From: Oscillospiraceae bacterium
Lineage (GTDB): Bacteria > Bacillota > Clostridia > Oscillospirales > Ruminococcaceae
Assembly (NCBI GenBank): GCA_017400345.1
Contig: JAFPTG010000003.1
Coordinates: 5,813 to 69,812, forward strand
DNA: 64,000 nt
Direction: 5' to 3'
The notes beneath the pieces were generated by a model that did not search any database, was not told the origin of the DNA, and was given only the letters and a program-made list of their open reading frames with translations. Below are positions 3,475 to 64,000 of this stretch, piece after piece. Numbering within the stretch: the first letter of the stretch is position 1; the number at the start of each line of letters is the position of its first letter. A program made the translations under genes and the position numbers.

Positions 3475-3960
3475 ATGGAAGCAGGAGAGCTAGCAGTTAT
3501 AACTAAAGCAAAAGCTGTTTGCAATTATATTATAACAGTTACAGATAAATCCCCTAAAAAGTTTCGTTTTACTTTAATTGGCCGTATGCAAAATTATGCA
3601 CTAGATATTATTGAAGGAATGATTATGGCAAATGAAGTTTACGTTACGGAAAAGGGATTAGGCGTTAATATAGAAGCATTAAAAGAGAGGCAAAAATTAC
3701 AAAGGAATGTACTTACAAACATAAAACTATTAGCATATGTATCGCAACTTTCTATGGAACAAAAATGCATATTGCCAAAACAATATGAGCAAATTACAGA
3801 AAAGCTCTATACATGCCAAAACCTCTTGGGTGCCTGGATTAAAAGCGATTTAAAGATAACATCGGTATATCACACATTTTTAATGTGTAGATATATAGGG
3901 ATATGGTTGCATGGTTCTGGTTGCGTTCTCCAAACGCGGGCAATAGCAACAATGCGCTGA
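3475..3960 (+). CDS. avd: DGR accessory variability determinant (Avd; four-helix-bundle / 23S rRNA-IVS protein family)
   Basis: RBS AAAGGGAG. It has family-typical segments SPKKFRFTLIGRMQNYALDIIEGMIMANEVY and QNLLGAWIKSD. It sits directly upstream of a TR and a DGR-type RT. The ORF reads on into the TR before reaching a stop, so the last ~30 aa are probably not part of the conserved fold. Confidence 0.8.
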   Translation: MEAGELAVITKAKAVCNYIITVTDKSPKKFRFTLIGRMQNYALDIIEGMIMANEVYVTEKGLGVNIEALKERQKLQRNVLTNIKLLAYVSQLSMEQKCILPKQYEQITEKLYTCQNLLGAWIKSDLKITSVYHTFLMCRYIGIWLHGSGCVLQTRAIATMR

Positions 3961-4034
3961 ATGCTAATACTGGCAACTATGTGAATAACAATAACGTCCA
4001 CAATAGCAACAGGTGCGTCCCCGCATGGCCTTAA
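3906..4034 (+). repeat. DGR template repeat (TR), non-translated
   Basis: In the frame offset from avd it reads VAWFWLRSPNAGNSNNALNANTGNYVNNNNVHNSNRCVPAWP*. That is 13 AAY Asn codons within 26 codons, ending in a GC-rich GCGTCCCCGC (IMH*-like) segment. It lies between avd and the RT. A perfect 9-bp hairpin follows at 4043-4064 (GATGTTTTT-AAGG-AAAAACATC). The boundaries are approximate. Confidence 0.75.
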
Positions 4035-4322
4035 CGTCTGATGATGTTTTTAAGGAAAAACATCCGGTGAAGCTAATCATGAATTTGCTTCTTAACCTTA
4101 AGGCAAAGGAACCATATTCCTTTTTGACTGCAAACAAAACTAAATTTATGTGGATTTGATTATCGGTTTTGTTAAGCAGCAGAAAAATACATACCGCCGG
4201 AAGGAAAAATGTATAAAGGAAATACTACTTAGAAGGATACTTTTGGACTGTGGCGCAAGCCTCGGCGGCTAGCGGAAATAGTAAAATAGGAAATAGTTAA
4301 AAATTAAGGGGGAGTATTACAA

Positions 4323-5381
4323 TTGTATGAAAAATTAACTGATTTTGCGAGTATTTATCAGGCATATAAAAAAACAGCAAAAGGAAAAAACATGATAAAA
4401 ACGAGGTAGTACGTTATGAAACAAATTTACATATGCAATTATGGCGTCTAAAAGAAAGAATAGAAAATAAGACTATTAAAATTGGTGGTTACCATAAATT
4501 TATGGTGTTTGATCCTAAAAAACGAGAGATCCAAGCATTAAGCTTTTCAGACAGAGTATTTCAACACCTGCTGTGTGATAAAGTGCTGATGCCATATTTT
4601 GAACCCAAATTAATTTATGATAATGCTGCGTGCAGAAAGAACAAAGGCACGCACTTTGCTCAAAACCGTTTCACTGGGTTTTTAAGAGATCACTATAAAA
4701 AGTATGGTAGTAAAGGATACATTCTAAAATATGATGTCAAAGGATATTTTAATTCTATACATCATAAAGTATTAAAAGAAAAACTTAAAAATTTTCCAGA
4801 CAAAGAGATTAAAGAGCTTCTCTATTATATTATAGATAGCTACGAAAGTGAACCAGAACGAGGTATACCCATGGGGAACCAATCTAATCAATGGTTTGCA
4901 CTTTACTATCTAGATCGCCTTGATAGAACTATAAAAGAGAAGTTGCATATCAAATATTATATCAGATATATGGATGATGGAGTGCTATTACACCAAGACA
5001 AAGGATATTTAAAAGAATGCCTTGTAGTTATAAAGGAACAAGCGACCAAAGACAAACTTGAATTTAATAAAAAAACAGAGATTTTTCCATTATGCCAAAG
5101 AGTAGATTTTTTAGGCTTCCACTTTTATCTTAACAGATACTGGAAAAGTCATAAAAAAGCTTAGAACATCTAATAAAAAACGGTTTAAAAGACGTCTCAA
5201 GCAATTTGAAAGACAATATGCAAAAGGGAAGATAACTTACGAAGAAATAAAAAGAAGTCTTGCCAGCTACCAAGGCCATCTAAAGCACGGTCATACATAT
5301 AAACTCAGAAAACATGTAATTTCTAATATAAAATTCAAGCAGAAAACAAACAATAATGAAGAAATGGGAAATAGCCTTTAA
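4323..5381 (+). pseudogene. DGR-type reverse transcriptase, split into three frame segments by two frameshifts
   Basis: A TTG at 4323 follows AAGGGGGA and starts LYEKLTDFASIYQAYKKTAKGK, which stops at TAG 4407. The central segment is track ORF 4433-5164 and is open from 4370. It contains IPMGNQSNQWFALYY (the DGR SQ-type motif) and YIRYMDDGV. The C-terminal segment returns to the first frame: LTDTGKVIKKLRTSNKKRFKRRLKQF...GHLKHGHTYKLRKH, with its stop at 5379-5381. The shifts lie in the A6 run at 4385-4390 and near 5128-5133. Confidence 0.8.
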
Positions 5382-55426: not shown

Positions 55427-56437
55427 TTATGTTTTTTGTTTTTTAGAATTTTTAACATGCTCATAGAGTTCACTTAGACTTTGATTAGATTTTATAGTAG
55501 AGAGCATTTCCATACCCTCTAACAGAAGTTCATCGCGATTTTTAGTCAGTTCTTTAATTTGTTCACGCAGGTTATTAATAAGCAGAACGTGATCGTCATA
55601 GCGTTTACGTAGATGTTCATTTTCTTTAGTAAGTTTATCAAAATCGTTTTTAAATGTCATGCCGAATCGAGCGATATTGCGCATTTGACTAAAATTTTCA
55701 TCTGTTAAAATTACAGATTCACCGCGAAATGGGATTTTACTGCGCCGAAAAGGAATGTCATCAATTGATTTCACTTTAATATCTATATCTTTATATTCAT
55801 TTAATTTATTTTCTAATTTTTGAACCTCTTTTGTGAGAATACTGCGTTTTAAATCTTCGGCCATTTTAAGGGGCTTTAAAACCTCGTCAGATTTTGTTAT
55901 ATTGAAGCCGTTTTCTCTTATGCTGGCCAAAGCTCTGGCGTGCAGCAAAGTTAAGCCTTTTCGGTCAAAAATTGTTTTAGCGCAAAGTCGCCCATCTTTA
56001 GTTAAAGGCACAAAACAAAAATGCATATGAGGAATACGTTCGTCCATATGTACAACCGCGTCAATTACTTTTTCTGCACCAAAGTAAGATATTAAAAAAT
56101 TGTAGTTACATCTAAAAAATTTTTGTATTTGGGTAGCATCTTGAGCTTCAAAAAAACTTTTATTGGATGTGACGCGCAAAGAACACATTACCGTTGCATC
56201 TTTACGAACAGCACGTTGACCTTTATAAAATTTTTTTATTATTTTGTTATATTCATACTCATATTCTAAAGTAGGGTCTATGGGGATGATTTCTTCTGTG
56301 CTTAAACGGTAATTTAAATTTGAACGGCTGGGATCAACAATAAGATCGTCTGAGAGATTTTCGCGTTGATTGTGTGCTTGAATTGGTAGTAGATCGCAAA
56401 ATTTATTTTTATTATTTAAACAAATGAGCGAAGCCAA
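55427..56437 (-). CDS. MobV-family (Mob/Pre, pMV158 MobM-like) plasmid mobilisation relaxase
   Basis: HxxR motif in IQAHNQRE, HxDE..PHxH motif in VVHMDERIPHMHFCFVPL, and a coiled-coil C-terminus. TTG start after AAGGAGGGA. Confidence 0.8.
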   Translation of the reverse strand: MASLICLNNKNKFCDLLPIQAHNQRENLSDDLIVDPSRSNLNYRLSTEEIIPIDPTLEYEYEYNKIIKKFYKGQRAVRKDATVMCSLRVTSNKSFFEAQDATQIQKFFRCNYNFLISYFGAEKVIDAVVHMDERIPHMHFCFVPLTKDGRLCAKTIFDRKGLTLLHARALASIRENGFNITKSDEVLKPLKMAEDLKRSILTKEVQKLENKLNEYKDIDIKVKSIDDIPFRRSKIPFRGESVILTDENFSQMRNIARFGMTFKNDFDKLTKENEHLRKRYDDHVLLINNLREQIKELTKNRDELLLEGMEMLSTIKSNQSLSELYEHVKNSKKQKT

Positions 56438-56459
56438 AAGATCCCTCCTTAAGCTAAGC

Positions 56460-56696
56460 TTAGTTTTCAGAACATTCGGAGTCTATAAGCTTAACAACGT
56501 CTCCAATTGTTTTAGCCTGGCTGATTTTTTCATCGTCAATTTCTATATTAAACGTTTGTTCTAAAGCCATAATTAAATCCACTAACCCTAAAGAATCCAT
56601 ATTTAAATTCTCTATTTGTGTGCCAAGTTCTATTGTTTGCTCAGAAATTCCAAACTGTTGATTCAGCACGGAACATAATTTTTGGAAAGTATTCAC
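56460..56696 (-). CDS. Acyl carrier protein-like (PP-binding) protein
   Basis: 78 aa and acidic. The phosphopantetheine-site context is LNMDSLGLVDLIMALEQTFNIEIDDEKI. GTG start after GGAGG. It lies 22 nt upstream of mob. Confidence 0.7.
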   Translation of the reverse strand: MNTFQKLCSVLNQQFGISEQTIELGTQIENLNMDSLGLVDLIMALEQTFNIEIDDEKISQAKTIGDVVKLIDSECSEN

Positions 56697-56819
56697 TTAA
56701 TATCAACCTCCGCAAAATGTTAAGGGACATAAAACTAATGTTAAATATTTAATGTTATAAATAATGGTATAAAATTTCGCAAAAAAATGCCTCAATATAT
56801 AATCGAAGCACAAAACAGA

Positions 56820-56894
56820 TGGTGATCCGTGGGGGAATTGAACCCCCGATACCGCCGTGAAAGGGCGGTGTCTTAACCTCTTGACCAACGGACC
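56820..56894 (-). tRNA. tRNA-Glu(UUC): tRNA-Glu (anticodon UUC), CCA encoded
   Basis: The reverse complement is GGTCCGTTGGTCAAGAGGTTAAGACACCGCCCTTTCACGGCGGTATCGGGGGTTCAATTCCCCCACGGATCACCA, very close to Bacillus tRNA-Glu. Confidence 0.92.
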
Positions 56895-56897
56895 AAA

Positions 56898-56974
56898 TGG
56901 TAGCGGTAGTTGGATTTGAACCAACGACACTCCGGGTATGAACCGAATGCTCTAGCCAACTGAGCTATACCGCC
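56898..56974 (-). tRNA. tRNA-Met(CAU): tRNA-Met (anticodon CAU; elongator type, though Ile2 is not excluded), CCA encoded
   Basis: The reverse complement is GGCGGTATAGCTCAGTTGGCTAGAGCATTCGGTTCATACCCGGAGTGTCGTTGGTTCAAATCCAACTACCGCTACCA. Confidence 0.88.
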
Positions 56975-57232: not shown

Positions 57233-57370
57233 AGGTGGTTTCTGTAACAAAAAAGGTGGTTGACATAATCGTCGAAAAATATCTATTACAAATTAGGTGG
57301 TTGTCTATTGACATACCGCCTTTTTTGTGATACAATAGAGATAGTGAGAACTGTAACTTTTTATGTGGTT
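57233..57370 (+). repeat. Direct repeats of AGGTGGTT (three exact copies and one ATGTGGTT) spanning the hsdR promoter
   Basis: Copies lie at 57233-57240, 57254-57261 and 57295-57302, with a variant at 57363-57370. Spacings between the exact copies are 21 and 41 nt. Two copies abut TTGACA hexamers. Confidence 0.6.
57308..57336 (+). promoter_or_regulatory. Promoter of the hsd operon
   Basis: TTGACA-17 nt-TACAAT with upstream TGTGA, about 70 nt before the hsdR ATG. Confidence 0.55.
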
Positions 57371-60315: not shown

Positions 60316-61863
60316 ATGTCTGACATTAGCACAAAATCACAGGAGCTTGCAAAACAGCTCTGGGCTATCGCAAATGATTTGCGTGGCAATATGGATTCTT
60401 CCAAATTCAAGAATTACATTCTCGGCACTATCTTCTATCGCTACCTATCGGAGCGCACAGAGAAGTATATGGACGAGATTCTGAAAAATGACGGCGTGAC
60501 CTACCGTGAAGCGCTCGAAAACGAGGAACTGGAAGAAGCAGTCAAGGAAATGTCGCTCGACCACTTGGGCTATATCATTGAGCCTGACAATCTGTTCAAT
60601 TCCCTTGTTGCGAAAATCAAGGGCGGTAAGTTCAGCATTGAGGACTATGAAAAGGCTATCGCTTCACTGGTCGGCTCTACTGTCGGACAGGAGAGTGAAG
60701 TTGCTTTTGACAAGCTGTTCGATGATATGAACTTGCAGGATAAGGACTTGGGTAAGGAAGTTTCACAGAGAACGAAACTTATCAGCAAGGTAATCAATAA
60801 GGTGTATGACATCGACTTCAATTTTGAAGACGCTGAGTTTGATGTTCTCGGTACGGCGTATATGATTCTGATTGGTCTGTTCGCCTCTGACGCAGGCAAG
60901 AAGGGCGGAGAGTTCTTCACGCCTACAAAGATGTCGGAACTTGTGGCAAGGCTTGCTACGCTCGGACTGGACACTGTAAAGAGTGCCTGCGACCCCTGTG
61001 CAGGCAGCGGCTCTCTCCTGCTGGAAGTAAAGCGTCACTGCTCCAATAGGACGGTCAATCACTATTTCGGGCAGGAAATGAACGGCACGACCTATAATCT
61101 TATGCGCCAGAATATGCTTATGCACGGTGTTCCGTACAAGGAGTTCACCGTATTCAATGATGATACAATCGAACACGACAATTTCGGTGAGACAAAGTTT
61201 CAGGTTCAGGTGGCAAATCCACCGTACTCTGCAAAGTGGTCTGCGGATTCCAAATTTGAGAGCGACCCTCGCTTTTCCAACTGTGGTGCGCTTGCTCCGA
61301 AGTCCTATGCTGACCTGATGTTCCTTGAACACATCGCCTATCATCTTGATAAGGACGGCAGAGCAGCAGTCCTGCTCCCTCACGGTGTTCTGTTCAGAGG
61401 GAACAAGGAAGAAGCTATCAGGCGTTACCTGATTGAGAATCAGAACGTCATTGACGCTATCATCGGTCTGCCTGCAAACTGCTTCCACGGCACATCTATC
61501 CCTGTGTGCTGTATCGTCCTGAAGAAGAACAGGAACGGCAACAGCGGAAACATCTGGTTCTGTGATGCAAGCAAGTATTACACCGCAGGCAAGAATATGA
61601 ACGAGCTTTCAAACGAAGATATTGACCGCATCGTGAACGCCTATGAGCAGAGGACAGAAATTGAAAAGTTCTCCCATATCGCAACGCTTGACGAAATCAG
61701 GGAGAACGGCTTTAACTGCAATATTCCTCGCTATGTCGATACCTTTGAGGAAGAAGCACCTATCGACATTCAGGCAGTCCGTGCGGAGCTTGCAGACATC
61801 ACAGCAAAGAAACAGGCGGCTATCGACAAGGTGAACGCAGGACTGAAACTGCTCGGATTGTGA
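60316..61863 (+). CDS. hsdM: Type I R-M N6-adenine DNA methyltransferase subunit
   Basis: HsdM N-terminal domain (LWAIANDLRGNMD..FKNYILG), motif I DPCAGSGSLL and motif IV VANPPYS. Confidence 0.93.
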   Translation: MSDISTKSQELAKQLWAIANDLRGNMDSSKFKNYILGTIFYRYLSERTEKYMDEILKNDGVTYREALENEELEEAVKEMSLDHLGYIIEPDNLFNSLVAKIKGGKFSIEDYEKAIASLVGSTVGQESEVAFDKLFDDMNLQDKDLGKEVSQRTKLISKVINKVYDIDFNFEDAEFDVLGTAYMILIGLFASDAGKKGGEFFTPTKMSELVARLATLGLDTVKSACDPCAGSGSLLLEVKRHCSNRTVNHYFGQEMNGTTYNLMRQNMLMHGVPYKEFTVFNDDTIEHDNFGETKFQVQVANPPYSAKWSADSKFESDPRFSNCGALAPKSYADLMFLEHIAYHLDKDGRAAVLLPHGVLFRGNKEEAIRRYLIENQNVIDAIIGLPANCFHGTSIPVCCIVLKKNRNGNSGNIWFCDASKYYTAGKNMNELSNEDIDRIVNAYEQRTEIEKFSHIATLDEIRENGFNCNIPRYVDTFEEEAPIDIQAVRAELADITAKKQAAIDKVNAGLKLLGL

Positions 61864-61871
61864 GGTGCGTT

Positions 61872-62486
61872 ATGTTAGTGCCGAAATTGAGATTTAAGCG
61901 TGAGGACGGGACGGATTATCCTGAATGGGAAAAGGACAAATGGTCTGCTCTTGGTGATTTTGTTGCCTCTGGAACACTGTCAAAGGCAGACCTTGCTGAA
62001 ACTGGAACGCCTTGTATTCTGTACGGAGAATTATATACAAAATACGGAGAAATAGCACATACGATTTACAGTAAGACAAGTGCTACATCACATACTTTTT
62101 CGCAGTATGATGATGTGATTTTACCTAAATCGGGCGAAACTCCTGAAGATATATCAACCGCAACTTGCGTACCGTATGACAATATTTCTCTTGGCGGTGA
62201 TTTGATTGTCTTTCGTCATAACGAAAAAGTCATCGGAGCATATTTGAGCTATCTTATATCTAACAGGGCGAAAAATGCTATTGCAAGTATCGCACAGGGA
62301 AAGTCTGTTGTTCATATCAACGAAAAATCTCTTGCTAATATTGAATTATCTTATCCTGACACAGAAGAACAGCAAAAAATCGCAGACTTTCTCTCCGCTT
62401 ATGACGAAGCTATCCGCTACGCAAAGCAGGAACTTGACAAGTGGAAAGAAGTGAAAAAGGGTCTGCTTCAGCAGATGTTTGTATAA
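61872..62486 (+). CDS. hsdS: Type I R-M specificity subunit, half-size (one TRD plus one conserved helix)
   Basis: MLVPKLRFKREDGTDYPEWE is a typical HsdS N-terminus. It has a single target-recognition domain and a C-terminal conserved coiled-coil segment, EEQQKIADFLSAYDEAIRYAKQELDKWKEVKKGLLQQMFV. ATG 61872 follows GAGGTG. The track start GTG 61860 overlaps the hsdM stop. Confidence 0.8.
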   Translation: MLVPKLRFKREDGTDYPEWEKDKWSALGDFVASGTLSKADLAETGTPCILYGELYTKYGEIAHTIYSKTSATSHTFSQYDDVILPKSGETPEDISTATCVPYDNISLGGDLIVFRHNEKVIGAYLSYLISNRAKNAIASIAQGKSVVHINEKSLANIELSYPDTEEQQKIADFLSAYDEAIRYAKQELDKWKEVKKGLLQQMFV

Positions 62487-62503
62487 TGAAAGAGGGTATA
62501 TTT

Positions 62504-63202
62504 ATGGCACATTATGATGTTTTCCTTTCACACGCAAACGCTGATAAAATCGACTTCGTTGAAGAACTGAAAAAGTCTTTTGACAAGCTCGGCATCAGCG
62601 TATTCTACGATAAGGACACCTTGAAATGGGGCGACAACTGGAAGAAAAAAATCATAGAAGGTTTGGAAAACTGTGATTTTGGTGTGATTGTTATTTCCAA
62701 TTCTTTTTTCGGCAGAGAATGGACAGAAAAGGAACTTAAAACACTTCTGTCTCGTCAAAACAAAAGCGGTCAGAAGATAATTCTTCCGATACTGTATAAT
62801 ACCACTCTCAAAGAGCTTACAGCACATTACAAAAAGCTGACTGACATTCAGTTCCTTGATGCTTCGCAGTATGATATTAAAGATATTACTATCCAATTAG
62901 CGAGTGTATTGCTTTCCGAAAAGACTCGTACAGAAAAGCAGGCAGGCAATGATAGTTTATTTGATGATTTCTTTCAAAGAATGAACACGTTGAGTTTTTA
63001 TGAATGGTTCTCTCGGCTCATTGAAAATGGCAATCAATTCATTGAAGATTATGACGAAAACTTTATCGGTTGGCATCTTGGTTCTGATATTATTCAGCAG
63101 AAAGAAGATAAACAGACTGGTGAAACTGTTTATAGAATAAATCCAATCTACTATGAAGATGCCAAAGCCTATTTTAAGAAAAAGATAAGACCACAGATGT
63201 AA
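62504..63202 (+). CDS. TIR-domain protein (N-terminal TIR, uncharacterised ~95-aa C-terminal domain)
   Basis: ATG 62504 lies 7 nt after AAAGAGGG and 17 nt after the hsdS stop. TIR hallmarks: YDVFLSHANADK, DFGVIVISNSFFGREWTEKEL (conserved Trp/Glu region) and ILPILY. Confidence 0.8.
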   Translation: MAHYDVFLSHANADKIDFVEELKKSFDKLGISVFYDKDTLKWGDNWKKKIIEGLENCDFGVIVISNSFFGREWTEKELKTLLSRQNKSGQKIILPILYNTTLKELTAHYKKLTDIQFLDASQYDIKDITIQLASVLLSEKTRTEKQAGNDSLFDDFFQRMNTLSFYEWFSRLIENGNQFIEDYDENFIGWHLGSDIIQQKEDKQTGETVYRINPIYYEDAKAYFKKKIRPQM

Positions 63203-63207
63203 TGAAA

Positions 63208-63238
63208 AATCCCCTTGCCATTGATTGACAAGGGGATT
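63208..63238. terminator. Hairpin between the TIR gene and the convergent transposase
   Basis: AATCCCCTTG-11 nt-CAAGGGGATT. It may also be part of the IS terminus. Confidence 0.55.
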
Positions 63239-63245
63239 CCTTATG

Positions 63246-64000
63246 CTATTTCTTGAATGTGAATTTACCTTTCTTTGCGGTGATGTGACGATACAGTATC
63301 TTCGCTCGGAGAACAGGGAATGTGTACCCTCTGCCTGCTCTGTCAACCTCACGGATAACATTATTCAGGCTCTCGGTCTGAGCGTTTGTATAGCGGTTGT
63401 CGAAGTAATTGAATATCTCCGTGTGCCAGTTCCCAACCGTGCTGATGAAGCCGTCATAGGCGTGACAGTCCTCGTCTGCATTCGCCTGCACCCAATCAGC
63501 ATACAGCTTTTCCGCATCTTCTCTCGATTCAGCGAACTGGTAGATATTTCGGAATGCCTCTTTGAGATAATACGGCGTTTTGAACTGCGGATATGCTTCA
63601 AGAAGCATATCAAGCTGTTTTGACTGTCGGGGCGTGAGATTTTCACCGCCTGTCAGGAACAGAAATCGCATATTCTTCAAGGACGCTCGTTTCTCTTTTT
63701 CCATATCCTTTCGGAGTGTTCTGCGTATTTCCTCTAACGCTCTGTTCAGCTCTTTGATGATATGGAACTTGTCAATTACTATCGGAACATCACCCAACAC
63801 ATCAAGTACAGCGTCTTTGTACGGCTGCCACATATCCATAGTCACGCATTGTATTTTGTGATTATCAGGCAGTGATTCCAGAAACATTTTGACCGTGACT
63901 TTGTTTCTGTTCTCGGTCATCTCAATGACCTTCTGACCCAACACATCAACGAACACGCCACAGTATTGACTATGCAGATGTACTTCATCTATGCCTAATA
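63246..64000 (-). CDS. ISL3-family DDE transposase, C-terminal part (the gene continues past the window end)
   Basis: GIDEVHL..., VTMDMWQPYKDA and NAQTESLNNVIREVDRAGRGY are ISL3-type DDE region motifs. The frame is open from 63957 to position 64000. Confidence 0.85.
   Translation of the reverse strand, partial: LGIDEVHLHSQYCGVFVDVLGQKVIEMTENRNKVTVKMFLESLPDNHKIQCVTMDMWQPYKDAVLDVLGDVPIVIDKFHIIKELNRALEEIRRTLRKDMEKEKRASLKNMRFLFLTGGENLTPRQSKQLDMLLEAYPQFKTPYYLKEAFRNIYQFAESREDAEKLYADWVQANADEDCHAYDGFISTVGNWHTEIFNYFDNRYTNAQTESLNNVIREVDRAGRGYTFPVLRAKILYRHITAKKGKFTFKK

Follow-up and report, generated by a model that had tools for sequence, protein, structure and literature searches.

The last 6.6 kb of a 64,000-nucleotide stretch of Oscillospiraceae DNA (contig JAFPTG010000003.1, positions 5,813 to 69,812; hereafter the window) hold a block of four co-directional genes, hsdR-hsdM-hsdS-TIR, in which the three genes of a Type I restriction-modification (R-M) system are followed by a gene for a TIR-domain protein. 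The fourth gene, an open reading frame (ORF) on the + strand running from ATG to TAA at 62504–63202, encodes 232 amino acids. A preliminary description of this DNA had proposed a PrrC-like arrangement, with the TIR protein coupled to the state of the Type I enzyme. By the analysis reported here, the gene is more likely to be a self-contained second-line defence cassette than to guard the Type I enzyme in the manner of PrrC.

The reading frame was confirmed, and its translation contains the strings YDVFLSHANADK and VIVISNSFFGREWTEKEL that had been quoted from it. A longer form of 253 residues, starting at GTG 62441, is also output by gene callers. We take the 232-residue form as the right product because all 31 homologues start at the methionine of the M-x-x-YDVF motif and because a ribosome-binding site, AAAGAGGG, lies 8 nt 5' of ATG 62504.

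The spacers between the genes agree with those first reported: 3 nt separate hsdR from hsdM and 17 nt separate hsdS from the TIR gene, while hsdS either overlaps hsdM by 4 nt (start at GTG 61860) or follows it after 8 nt (ATG 61872). The block also appears to be a single operon, as had been proposed, with no convincing terminator found ahead of the hairpin 3' of the TIR stop codon (Table 1). The only + strand terminator-like site near the hsdS/TIR junction (62461–62476) folds no better than shuffled sequences (z = -0.3) and was rejected. An internal TIR promoter was rejected as well: a perfect TATAAT at 62482–62487 overlaps the hsdS stop codon, the nearest TTGACA lies 42 nt upstream, and the promoter scan returned no site there. 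The best site in the region, upstream of hsdR, is likely the operon promoter, and the scan found nothing comparable between hsdR and the TIR gene. The hairpin is probably both the terminator and the end of the cassette. Its stem is conserved in a related operon, L034 (-19.4 for the counterpart), and its U-tract is weak on the + strand. Beyond it, an ISL3-family transposase gene forms the right boundary of the system; the L034 operon carries no insertion sequence (IS) at this point, and another related locus, L059, shares the junction up to 63295.

HsdR contains all five domains expected of it (HSDR_N, SWI2_SNF2/ResIII, T1R_D3-like and EcoR124_C in Pfam). HsdS matches only the second half of full-length PADLOC profiles (e.g. 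204–411 of 411) and aligns to residues 185–396 of the 396-residue HsdS of L034. If functional, such a half-size subunit might, for instance, recognise a symmetric site as a homodimer.

Table 1 The hsdRMS-TIR block and its boundaries in the window.
Feature	Position	Strand	Basis or remark
Likely operon promoter, Sigma-70-type, TTGACA-17-TACAAT, TG-extended	57308..57336	+	11/12 matches; best in region
hsdR, Type I restriction subunit, 968 aa	57406..60312	+	Pfam; PADLOC REase_I 1.1e-240
hsdM, Type I methyltransferase subunit, 515 aa	60316..61863	+	HsdM_N and N6_Mtase 3.2e-95 (Pfam)
Half-size hsdS, 208 aa, one target-recognition domain and conserved C-terminal region	61860..62486	+	Single Methylase_S (Pfam)
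Spacer of 17 nt with ribosome-binding site AAAGAGGG	62487..62503	+	Site kept in relatives with other upstream genes
TIR domain, residues 1–138 of the 232-aa protein	62504..62917	+	AbTir/BtTir/TcpB/PdTIR clade
Catalytic motif W73-T74-E75-K76-E77 (TGG ACA GAA AAG GAA)	62720..62734	+	Predicted catalytic Glu is E77
C-terminal domain, residues ~150–232, acidic α-α-β-hairpin-α in the model	62951..63199	+	Proposed sensor or clustering module
GC-rich hairpin 3' of the TIR stop codon, probable terminator	63208..63238	.	-18.3 kcal/mol, z = -3.65
ISL3-family transposase, right boundary, outside the system	63246..63956	-	DDE_Tnp_ISL3 5e-57 (Pfam)

The two domains of the TIR protein

Pfam places TIR_2 at residues 6–123 (E = 1.1e-21), with a second match to TIR at E = 4.9e-14, which upholds the original domain assignment. 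When a profile of 31 full-length homologues (A1) was compared with solved structures, the closest relatives were AbTIR (1.7e-34), BtTir (1.1e-28), TcpB/BtpA (8.6e-28) and PdTIR, spanning E values from 1e-34 to 1e-24. The AlphaFold model matches the same structures in Foldseek with template modelling (TM) scores of 0.82–0.85 relative to the target and 33–41% identity. At the active site, R71-E-W73-T74-E-K-E77 corresponds to K202-D-W204-T205-N-Y-E208 of AbTir. The alignment is free of gaps through the active site, and the catalytic Glu is retained, as had been claimed; a TIR domain lacking the catalytic Glu on proper alignment is thereby ruled out. W73, T74 and E77 are invariant among the 31 homologues, as is G43 of the BB loop. 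In AbTir, the E208A mutant is inactive and W204A and T205A are impaired. Both the fold and the catalytic motif expected of a TIR enzyme of the AbTir/TcpB clade that cleaves nicotinamide adenine dinucleotide (NAD) are present, and the 232-residue protein is, judging by these features, a probable NAD-cleaving TIR immune protein.

Two PADLOC profiles also match the protein, both in its TIR part: ThsB1 (4.7e-28) and PDC-S66 (4.5e-43, confined to profile positions 148–280 of 282). The absence of partner genes noted in the preliminary description was borne out by PADLOC and Pfam searches of the other 43 ORFs of the window, which contain no ThsA, CBASS, Pycsar or Argonaute gene. The same description had also listed a retron reverse transcriptase (RT) as absent. 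No retron partner is indeed present, but the window does contain an RT gene at 4433–5161. The match to retron type XII RT-TIR proteins is limited to the TIR end of the profiles, and the window protein has no fused RT. It had further been feared that a known partner might lie just beyond the IS; this worry is removed by the L034 operon, which is free of the IS and has no ThsA-like gene within 10 kb.

These searches bear on the alternative that the protein is a signal generator of the ThsB type, which would make an isomer of cyclic ADP-ribose (cADPR) on sensing a phage and act through a receptor or effector whose gene lies at another site in the genome. The TIR domain of Thoeris ThsB is likewise of the sensor/enzyme type, the ThsB1 profile matches here, the nearest solved TIR domains make 2'cADPR and SpbK also makes N1-cADPR. 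The adjacent ThsA or other effector that characterises Thoeris was seen neither in the window nor at the loci of relatives, and no ThsA or other cADPR-binding partner was found in the window or in any of ~18 contexts, covering 7–10 kb around relatives. A mobile cassette carried on integrative and conjugative elements (ICEs) would, moreover, often reach hosts that lack the receptor. We therefore regard a signal generator of this type as rather unlikely.

The C-terminal domain, which could not be assigned initially, belongs to no family in Pfam, NCBIfam, PHROGs or PADLOC. Residues ~150–232 were modelled alone because a fold search with the whole model gave TIR matches only. The resulting, confident model (predicted local distance difference test score, pLDDT, 85; predicted TM score, pTM, 0.76) consists of two helices, a long loop, a β-hairpin and a final helix, and the domain has an isoelectric point (pI) of 4.7. 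A fold search of the PDB with this model gave no significant match (best E 0.085). As modelled, the C-terminal domain is a new, acidic, folded module of an undescribed family.

The top, non-significant fold matches were MarR/ArsR winged-helix regulators (E 0.085–0.6, root-mean-square deviation 5–12 Å), and a winged-helix identity was not adopted. These matches are among the points that would favour a role other than anti-phage defence, either as a regulator of the R-M operon with a winged-helix-like C-terminal domain, in line with the small controller gene often present in Type II systems, or as a Tcp-like factor through which gut or rumen bacteria interact with the host, given that the closest solved TIR proteins include TcpB/BtpA, first described as a modulator of host TLR signalling. 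We consider such a role extremely improbable: the fold matches lack significance (E ≥ 0.085), the acidic domain is ill-suited to DNA binding, the gene context always consists of defence genes or mobile elements, and the invariant catalytic residues would be needless in a pure regulator.

The C-terminal domain family is very rare. When 1.84 billion cluster representatives were searched exhaustively with a profile, only 14 proteins were recovered, which have the same TIR plus C-terminal architecture, are fragments, or belong to three stand-alone versions of ~120 residues. The latter (P0123, P0124 and P0128; e.g. L058 239–601) join a short unrelated leader to the C-terminal domain and have no TIR domain; they could be fragments, partners or decoys. 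No stand-alone C-terminal domains that might serve as phage decoys were found in viral contigs, and the single recovered contig with P0123, of 1.6 kb, is uninformative. One further protein, P0122, was left unused: its flagellin-like N-terminus, followed by the end of a TIR domain and the C-terminal domain, suggests a chimeric call.

Gene contexts of the relatives

Gene neighbourhoods of relatives were sampled by exact-protein look-ups and by pattern scans of genome, metagenome and viral contigs, and neighbouring genes were classified by tblastn against a panel, Pfam and PADLOC. These scans were seeded with the TIR domain; the C-terminal domain has no stretch conserved enough to seed a locus search.

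The genome survey for TIR genes inside hsd operons that had been suggested at the outset yielded several. On an ICE in a Lachnospiraceae metagenome-assembled genome (L034–L037), the order is hsdR-hsdM-hsdS-TIR, as in the window, with an hsdS of 396 codons. DNA homology between this operon and that of the window covers hsdR and hsdM, breaks in the variable recognition domain of hsdS, and resumes from the 3' end of hsdS through the TIR gene and the hairpin to end at window position 63241. Two other loci, L046 and L073, have the layout hsdM-TIR-hsdS-x-hsdR, with Hsd proteins 34–37% identical to those of the window and 56–66% identical to each other, and at L057 the order is hsdM-hsdS-TIR. More distant proteins share the TIR domain only, in which they are 52–66% identical, and have other extra domains, mostly N-terminal; at least 16 of 40 such loci have Hsd-like genes nearby, often with the TIR gene between hsdS and hsdR. 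Examples of these layouts are L009 (3430–12312; hsdM-ABC ATPase-hsdS-TIR-hsdR) and L018 (4979–14812; hsdM-x-hsdS-TIR-x-hsdR). The ABC ATPase between hsdM and hsdS at L009 resembles PARIS AriA/PtuA, and one possibility is that it forms with the TIR protein a pair split by hsdS.

Full-length relatives are also found well outside Type I systems. A copy 84% identical to the window protein lies 3' of McrB-McrC, ~70 nt after McrC (L040), and at L044 a 78% identical copy has BREX remnants, an AAA_13 ATPase and a large helicase as its neighbours. Copies on the ICEs of L051 and L070 follow RtcB or nothing recognisable; together with L044 and L062, these two loci (RtcB-TIR) have no R-M neighbour. In the largest group, the TIR gene lies between a methyltransferase and an endonuclease gene (L048–50, L054–56, L063–69, L071, L072 and L074) whose products match full-length PADLOC Type II profiles (MTase_II 2.4e-109, REase_II 1.1e-126), with gaps of 2–17 nt or with overlapping genes. 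At seven of these loci (L048, L054, L056, L064, L069, L072 and L074) the flanking genes encode an EcoRI-like methyltransferase and a DUF262/HNH endonuclease, consistently with the TIR gene between them.

The Type II triad is retained even though its TIR gene is replaced or evolves much more rapidly than the genes on either side. Between L069 and L074, the methyltransferases are 90% and the endonucleases 94% identical, as against 57% for the TIR domain and 40% for the C-terminal domain; between L054 and L064, the corresponding values are 79%, 96%, 72% and 64%. Comparison of the window with L034 reveals the same trend (HsdM 94%, HsdR 84%, TIR protein 73%). Within conserved R-M frames, the embedded TIR gene is thus the variable element, and its fastest-evolving part is the C-terminal domain, as would be expected for a module engaged with phage proteins.

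Among the closest relatives, the TIR gene has outlasted the Type I genes. On a metagenome contig (L059; JAEEGF011804148.1, 1–2118), it is intact and 94% identical (90% at the DNA level), and hsdR and hsdM have been deleted, since hsdR codons ~10–35 join hsdS directly. The hsdS gene there encodes 244 residues, and a NADAR-domain fragment lies just upstream. At L060 (88% identical), an hsdS fragment of 143 residues is all that is left, in an otherwise unrelated chromosomal setting, and at L002 (83%) hsd has left no trace but 75 recognisable nt of the 3' end of hsdS, ahead of the TIR gene. Pairwise dN/dS values among the closest TIR copies are 0.05–0.15, indicating purifying selection.

These contexts weigh against a PrrC-like guard, in which the Hsd complex would bind and silence the TIR protein until an anti-restriction protein freed it as an NAD-depleting toxin. 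PrrC itself is the precedent, the TIR gene is the last cistron of hsdRMS in a layout kept in L034, further family members lie within two more Type I layouts, and Hsd-like genes are near about 16 of the 40 TIR-domain-only loci. The family, however, also occupies McrBC, Type II, BREX-remnant and solo contexts, and the coupling to the Type I enzyme that had been proposed is not supported. A toxin silenced by Hsd should not survive the loss of hsd, and the intact TIR genes of L059, L060 and L002, which purifying selection has preserved despite the deletion of hsdR and hsdM or the reduction of the hsd genes to an hsdS remnant, therefore oppose it; more broadly, relatives with 78–94% identity are found 3' of McrBC, in the company of unrelated genes, or at sites where the hsd genes are deleted or reduced to relics. 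The many distant members between Type II methyltransferase and endonuclease genes imply that there is no common Hsd surface to bind, and the protein has no similarity to the ATPase or nuclease domains of PrrC. We judge a guard of this kind to be quite improbable.

A broader link to restriction merits somewhat more consideration, although it too is unlikely. The acidic C-terminal domain would sense a cue shared by phages able to evade restriction, for instance anti-restriction or DNA-mimic proteins, or by-products of DNA breakage or restriction, and the protein would be a generic back-up of R-M systems. About 14 of the 18 contexts lie in or abut Type I, II or IV restriction genes or their relics, the tightest gaps are 1–17 nt with looser spacing at relic loci, and the Type II triad outlives replacement or divergence of its own TIR gene. 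Some copies, on the other hand, have no R-M neighbour (L051, L070, L044 and L062), no single known trigger is common to Type I, McrBC and Type II HNH/DUF262 systems, recognition of diverse phage proteins would suit the hypervariable C-terminal domain better than recognition of one conserved signal, and Payne et al. put forward hitch-hiking as reason enough for embedding. If true, such a companion role would explain the retention of the gene inside Type I, II and IV operons alike, and the family would represent the first NAD-depleting back-up to serve restriction systems in general instead of a single enzyme.

Of the ~18 contexts, 5 include a DUF4238 gene at most a few kb away from the TIR gene (L040 10744–11697, L002 11078–12031, L044 2989–4158, L054 10382–11260 and L057 1660–2436), followed in 2 of them by a UvrD-family helicase gene. 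It was rejected as a TIR partner, since neither the window nor L034 contains it and it is a validated single-gene defence in its own right; we regard it as a neighbour within defence islands. Both single-protein TIR systems and DUF4238 have been validated as defences (Rousset et al.).

Proposed mode of action and known systems

The reading that we favour, and to which we assign a somewhat better than even chance, is by analogy an autonomous, SpbK-like one-protein TIR NADase that would act by abortive infection, with a fast-evolving sensor, carried as a cassette in restriction operons and providing a second layer of defence. The one-gene architecture of the SpbK kind is present in the window: a TIR domain (residues 1–138), a linker and a C-terminal domain (150–232), with no conserved partner. 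TIR NADases require head-to-tail self-association to form a composite active site, and in SpbK, encoded by ICEBs1, a non-TIR domain of ~94 residues brings the TIR domains together by docking on the phage portal, a dodecamer.

On this model, the TIR gene would be co-transcribed as the last gene of hsdRMS, and in the uninfected cell its product would be held inactive in a dimer-like state, as suggested by AbTir and SpbK. When a phage that restriction has failed to stop infects the cell, the C-terminal domain might bind a multimeric component made by the phage, or otherwise drive clustering, so that the TIR domains would stack head-to-tail and create composite active sites. NAD+ would then be converted to nicotinamide and ADP-ribose or a cADPR isomer, and the infected cell would no longer support phage growth. 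Embedding would provide co-expression and co-transfer with first-line restriction, rather than a physical switch operated by the Hsd complex.

Several points count against this model of autonomous action. The defence role, the NADase activity and the trigger are all assigned from homology and gene context. In the BB loop, the position of AbTir S176 is occupied by N45, and by N, K, D or E across the family; in AbTir, G174 and S176 are needed and S176A lowers activity. The TIRs of the AbTir clade (AbTir, BtTir and TcpB) produce 2'cADPR, and a signalling role with a receptor elsewhere would therefore be possible. The loci without hsdR and hsdM are metagenome contigs, that of L059 only 2.1 kb long, and it is possible that Hsd proteins act in trans on copies without adjacent hsdR and hsdM. 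Finally, R-M genes or relics adjoin the TIR gene in ~14 of the 18 distinct full-length-family contexts, and this excess over what generic defence-island placement would need may reflect a real functional tie to restriction.

Comparison with known systems reveals partial resemblances. SpbK (YddK of Bacillus subtilis ICEBs1) is likewise a single, partnerless polypeptide that combines a TIR NADase with a small non-TIR domain, is ICE-borne and is activated by clustering of its TIR domains. It differs in its domain order, an N-terminal four-helix bundle preceding the TIR domain, whereas the window protein has the TIR domain first; the TIR domain of the window protein belongs to the AbTir clade, its C-terminal domain has an unrelated α/β fold, and its family is habitually embedded in R-M operons. 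SpbK does not appear among the PDB profile matches at E ≤ 0.01. AbTir, BtTir, TcpB (BtpA) and PdTIR are the best matches in both sequence and fold and have the identical W-T-x-x-E motif, but in these proteins an N-terminal coiled coil or other domain precedes the TIR domain, none has the C-terminal domain of the window protein, and they are not described as members of R-M operons.

PrrC of EcoprrI is similarly an abortive-infection effector whose gene lies within a Type I R-M operon and which backs up restriction as a second line of defence. It consists of an ABC-type NTPase and an anticodon nuclease, unlike the window protein, which matches TIR families only; it is masked by the Hsd complex, whereas the TIR family persists where hsdR and hsdM are lost. 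Outside Type I loci, PrrC is hardly ever encountered (Payne et al., preprint). Of the features of a PrrC-type system, the embedding in an hsd operon is present here, and the near-exclusive association with Type I loci and the architecture are not.

Defence candidates nested in Type I R-M, BREX and DISARM operons have been described and used for discovery (Payne et al.). One of these, PDC-S66 from the same 'guilt-by-embedding' work, has a profile that matches the TIR domain of the window protein. Its own extra domain is N-terminal, the match does not extend over its full length, and the C-terminal domain of the window protein occurs in no PADLOC model. The statement in the preliminary description that such a coupling had not been characterised thus holds at the experimental level only, because the embedding of defence genes in Type I operons, TIR candidates such as PDC-S66 included, has already been catalogued. 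What appears to be new is the C-terminal domain, the placing of the TIR domain first, and the range of R-M classes (I, II and IV) into which a single small family has inserted.

Both one-protein TIR NADases (SpbK, for example) and defence genes carried within restriction operons (for example PrrC) were known; in gut and rumen Clostridia, the present family joins the two and shows a marked preference for insertion into restriction systems of three different classes. At 232 residues and one gene, it offers a compact test case both for how TIR proteins recognise infection and for whether embedding reflects hitch-hiking or functionally linked layered immunity. Its natural variants, with hsdR and hsdM deleted or with the TIR gene swapped in a conserved methyltransferase/endonuclease frame, are informative 'experiments' in this respect.

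Surroundings of the operon in the window

The RT gene of the window lies 57 kb from the TIR gene, beside a bAvd-like gene. The latter matches at E = 1.1e-8, below the Pfam cutoff, and is followed by the RT ORF of 243 residues (RVT_1 4.8e-17), which looks short and may be truncated or mis-started. On sequence grounds, the pair (3475–5164) looks like a diversity-generating retroelement and not a retron partner.

An Rfam scan of the window found three tRNAs and nothing else. Immediately upstream of the hsd promoter (55427–56974) are a Mob_Pre relaxase gene, a small acyl-carrier-like ORF (56460–56696) and a tRNA-Glu/tRNA-Met pair. This arrangement suggests that the hsdRMS-TIR block is part of a mobilisable island integrated beside tRNA genes. 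Further upstream, beyond the relaxase gene, the window contains ordinary housekeeping genes.

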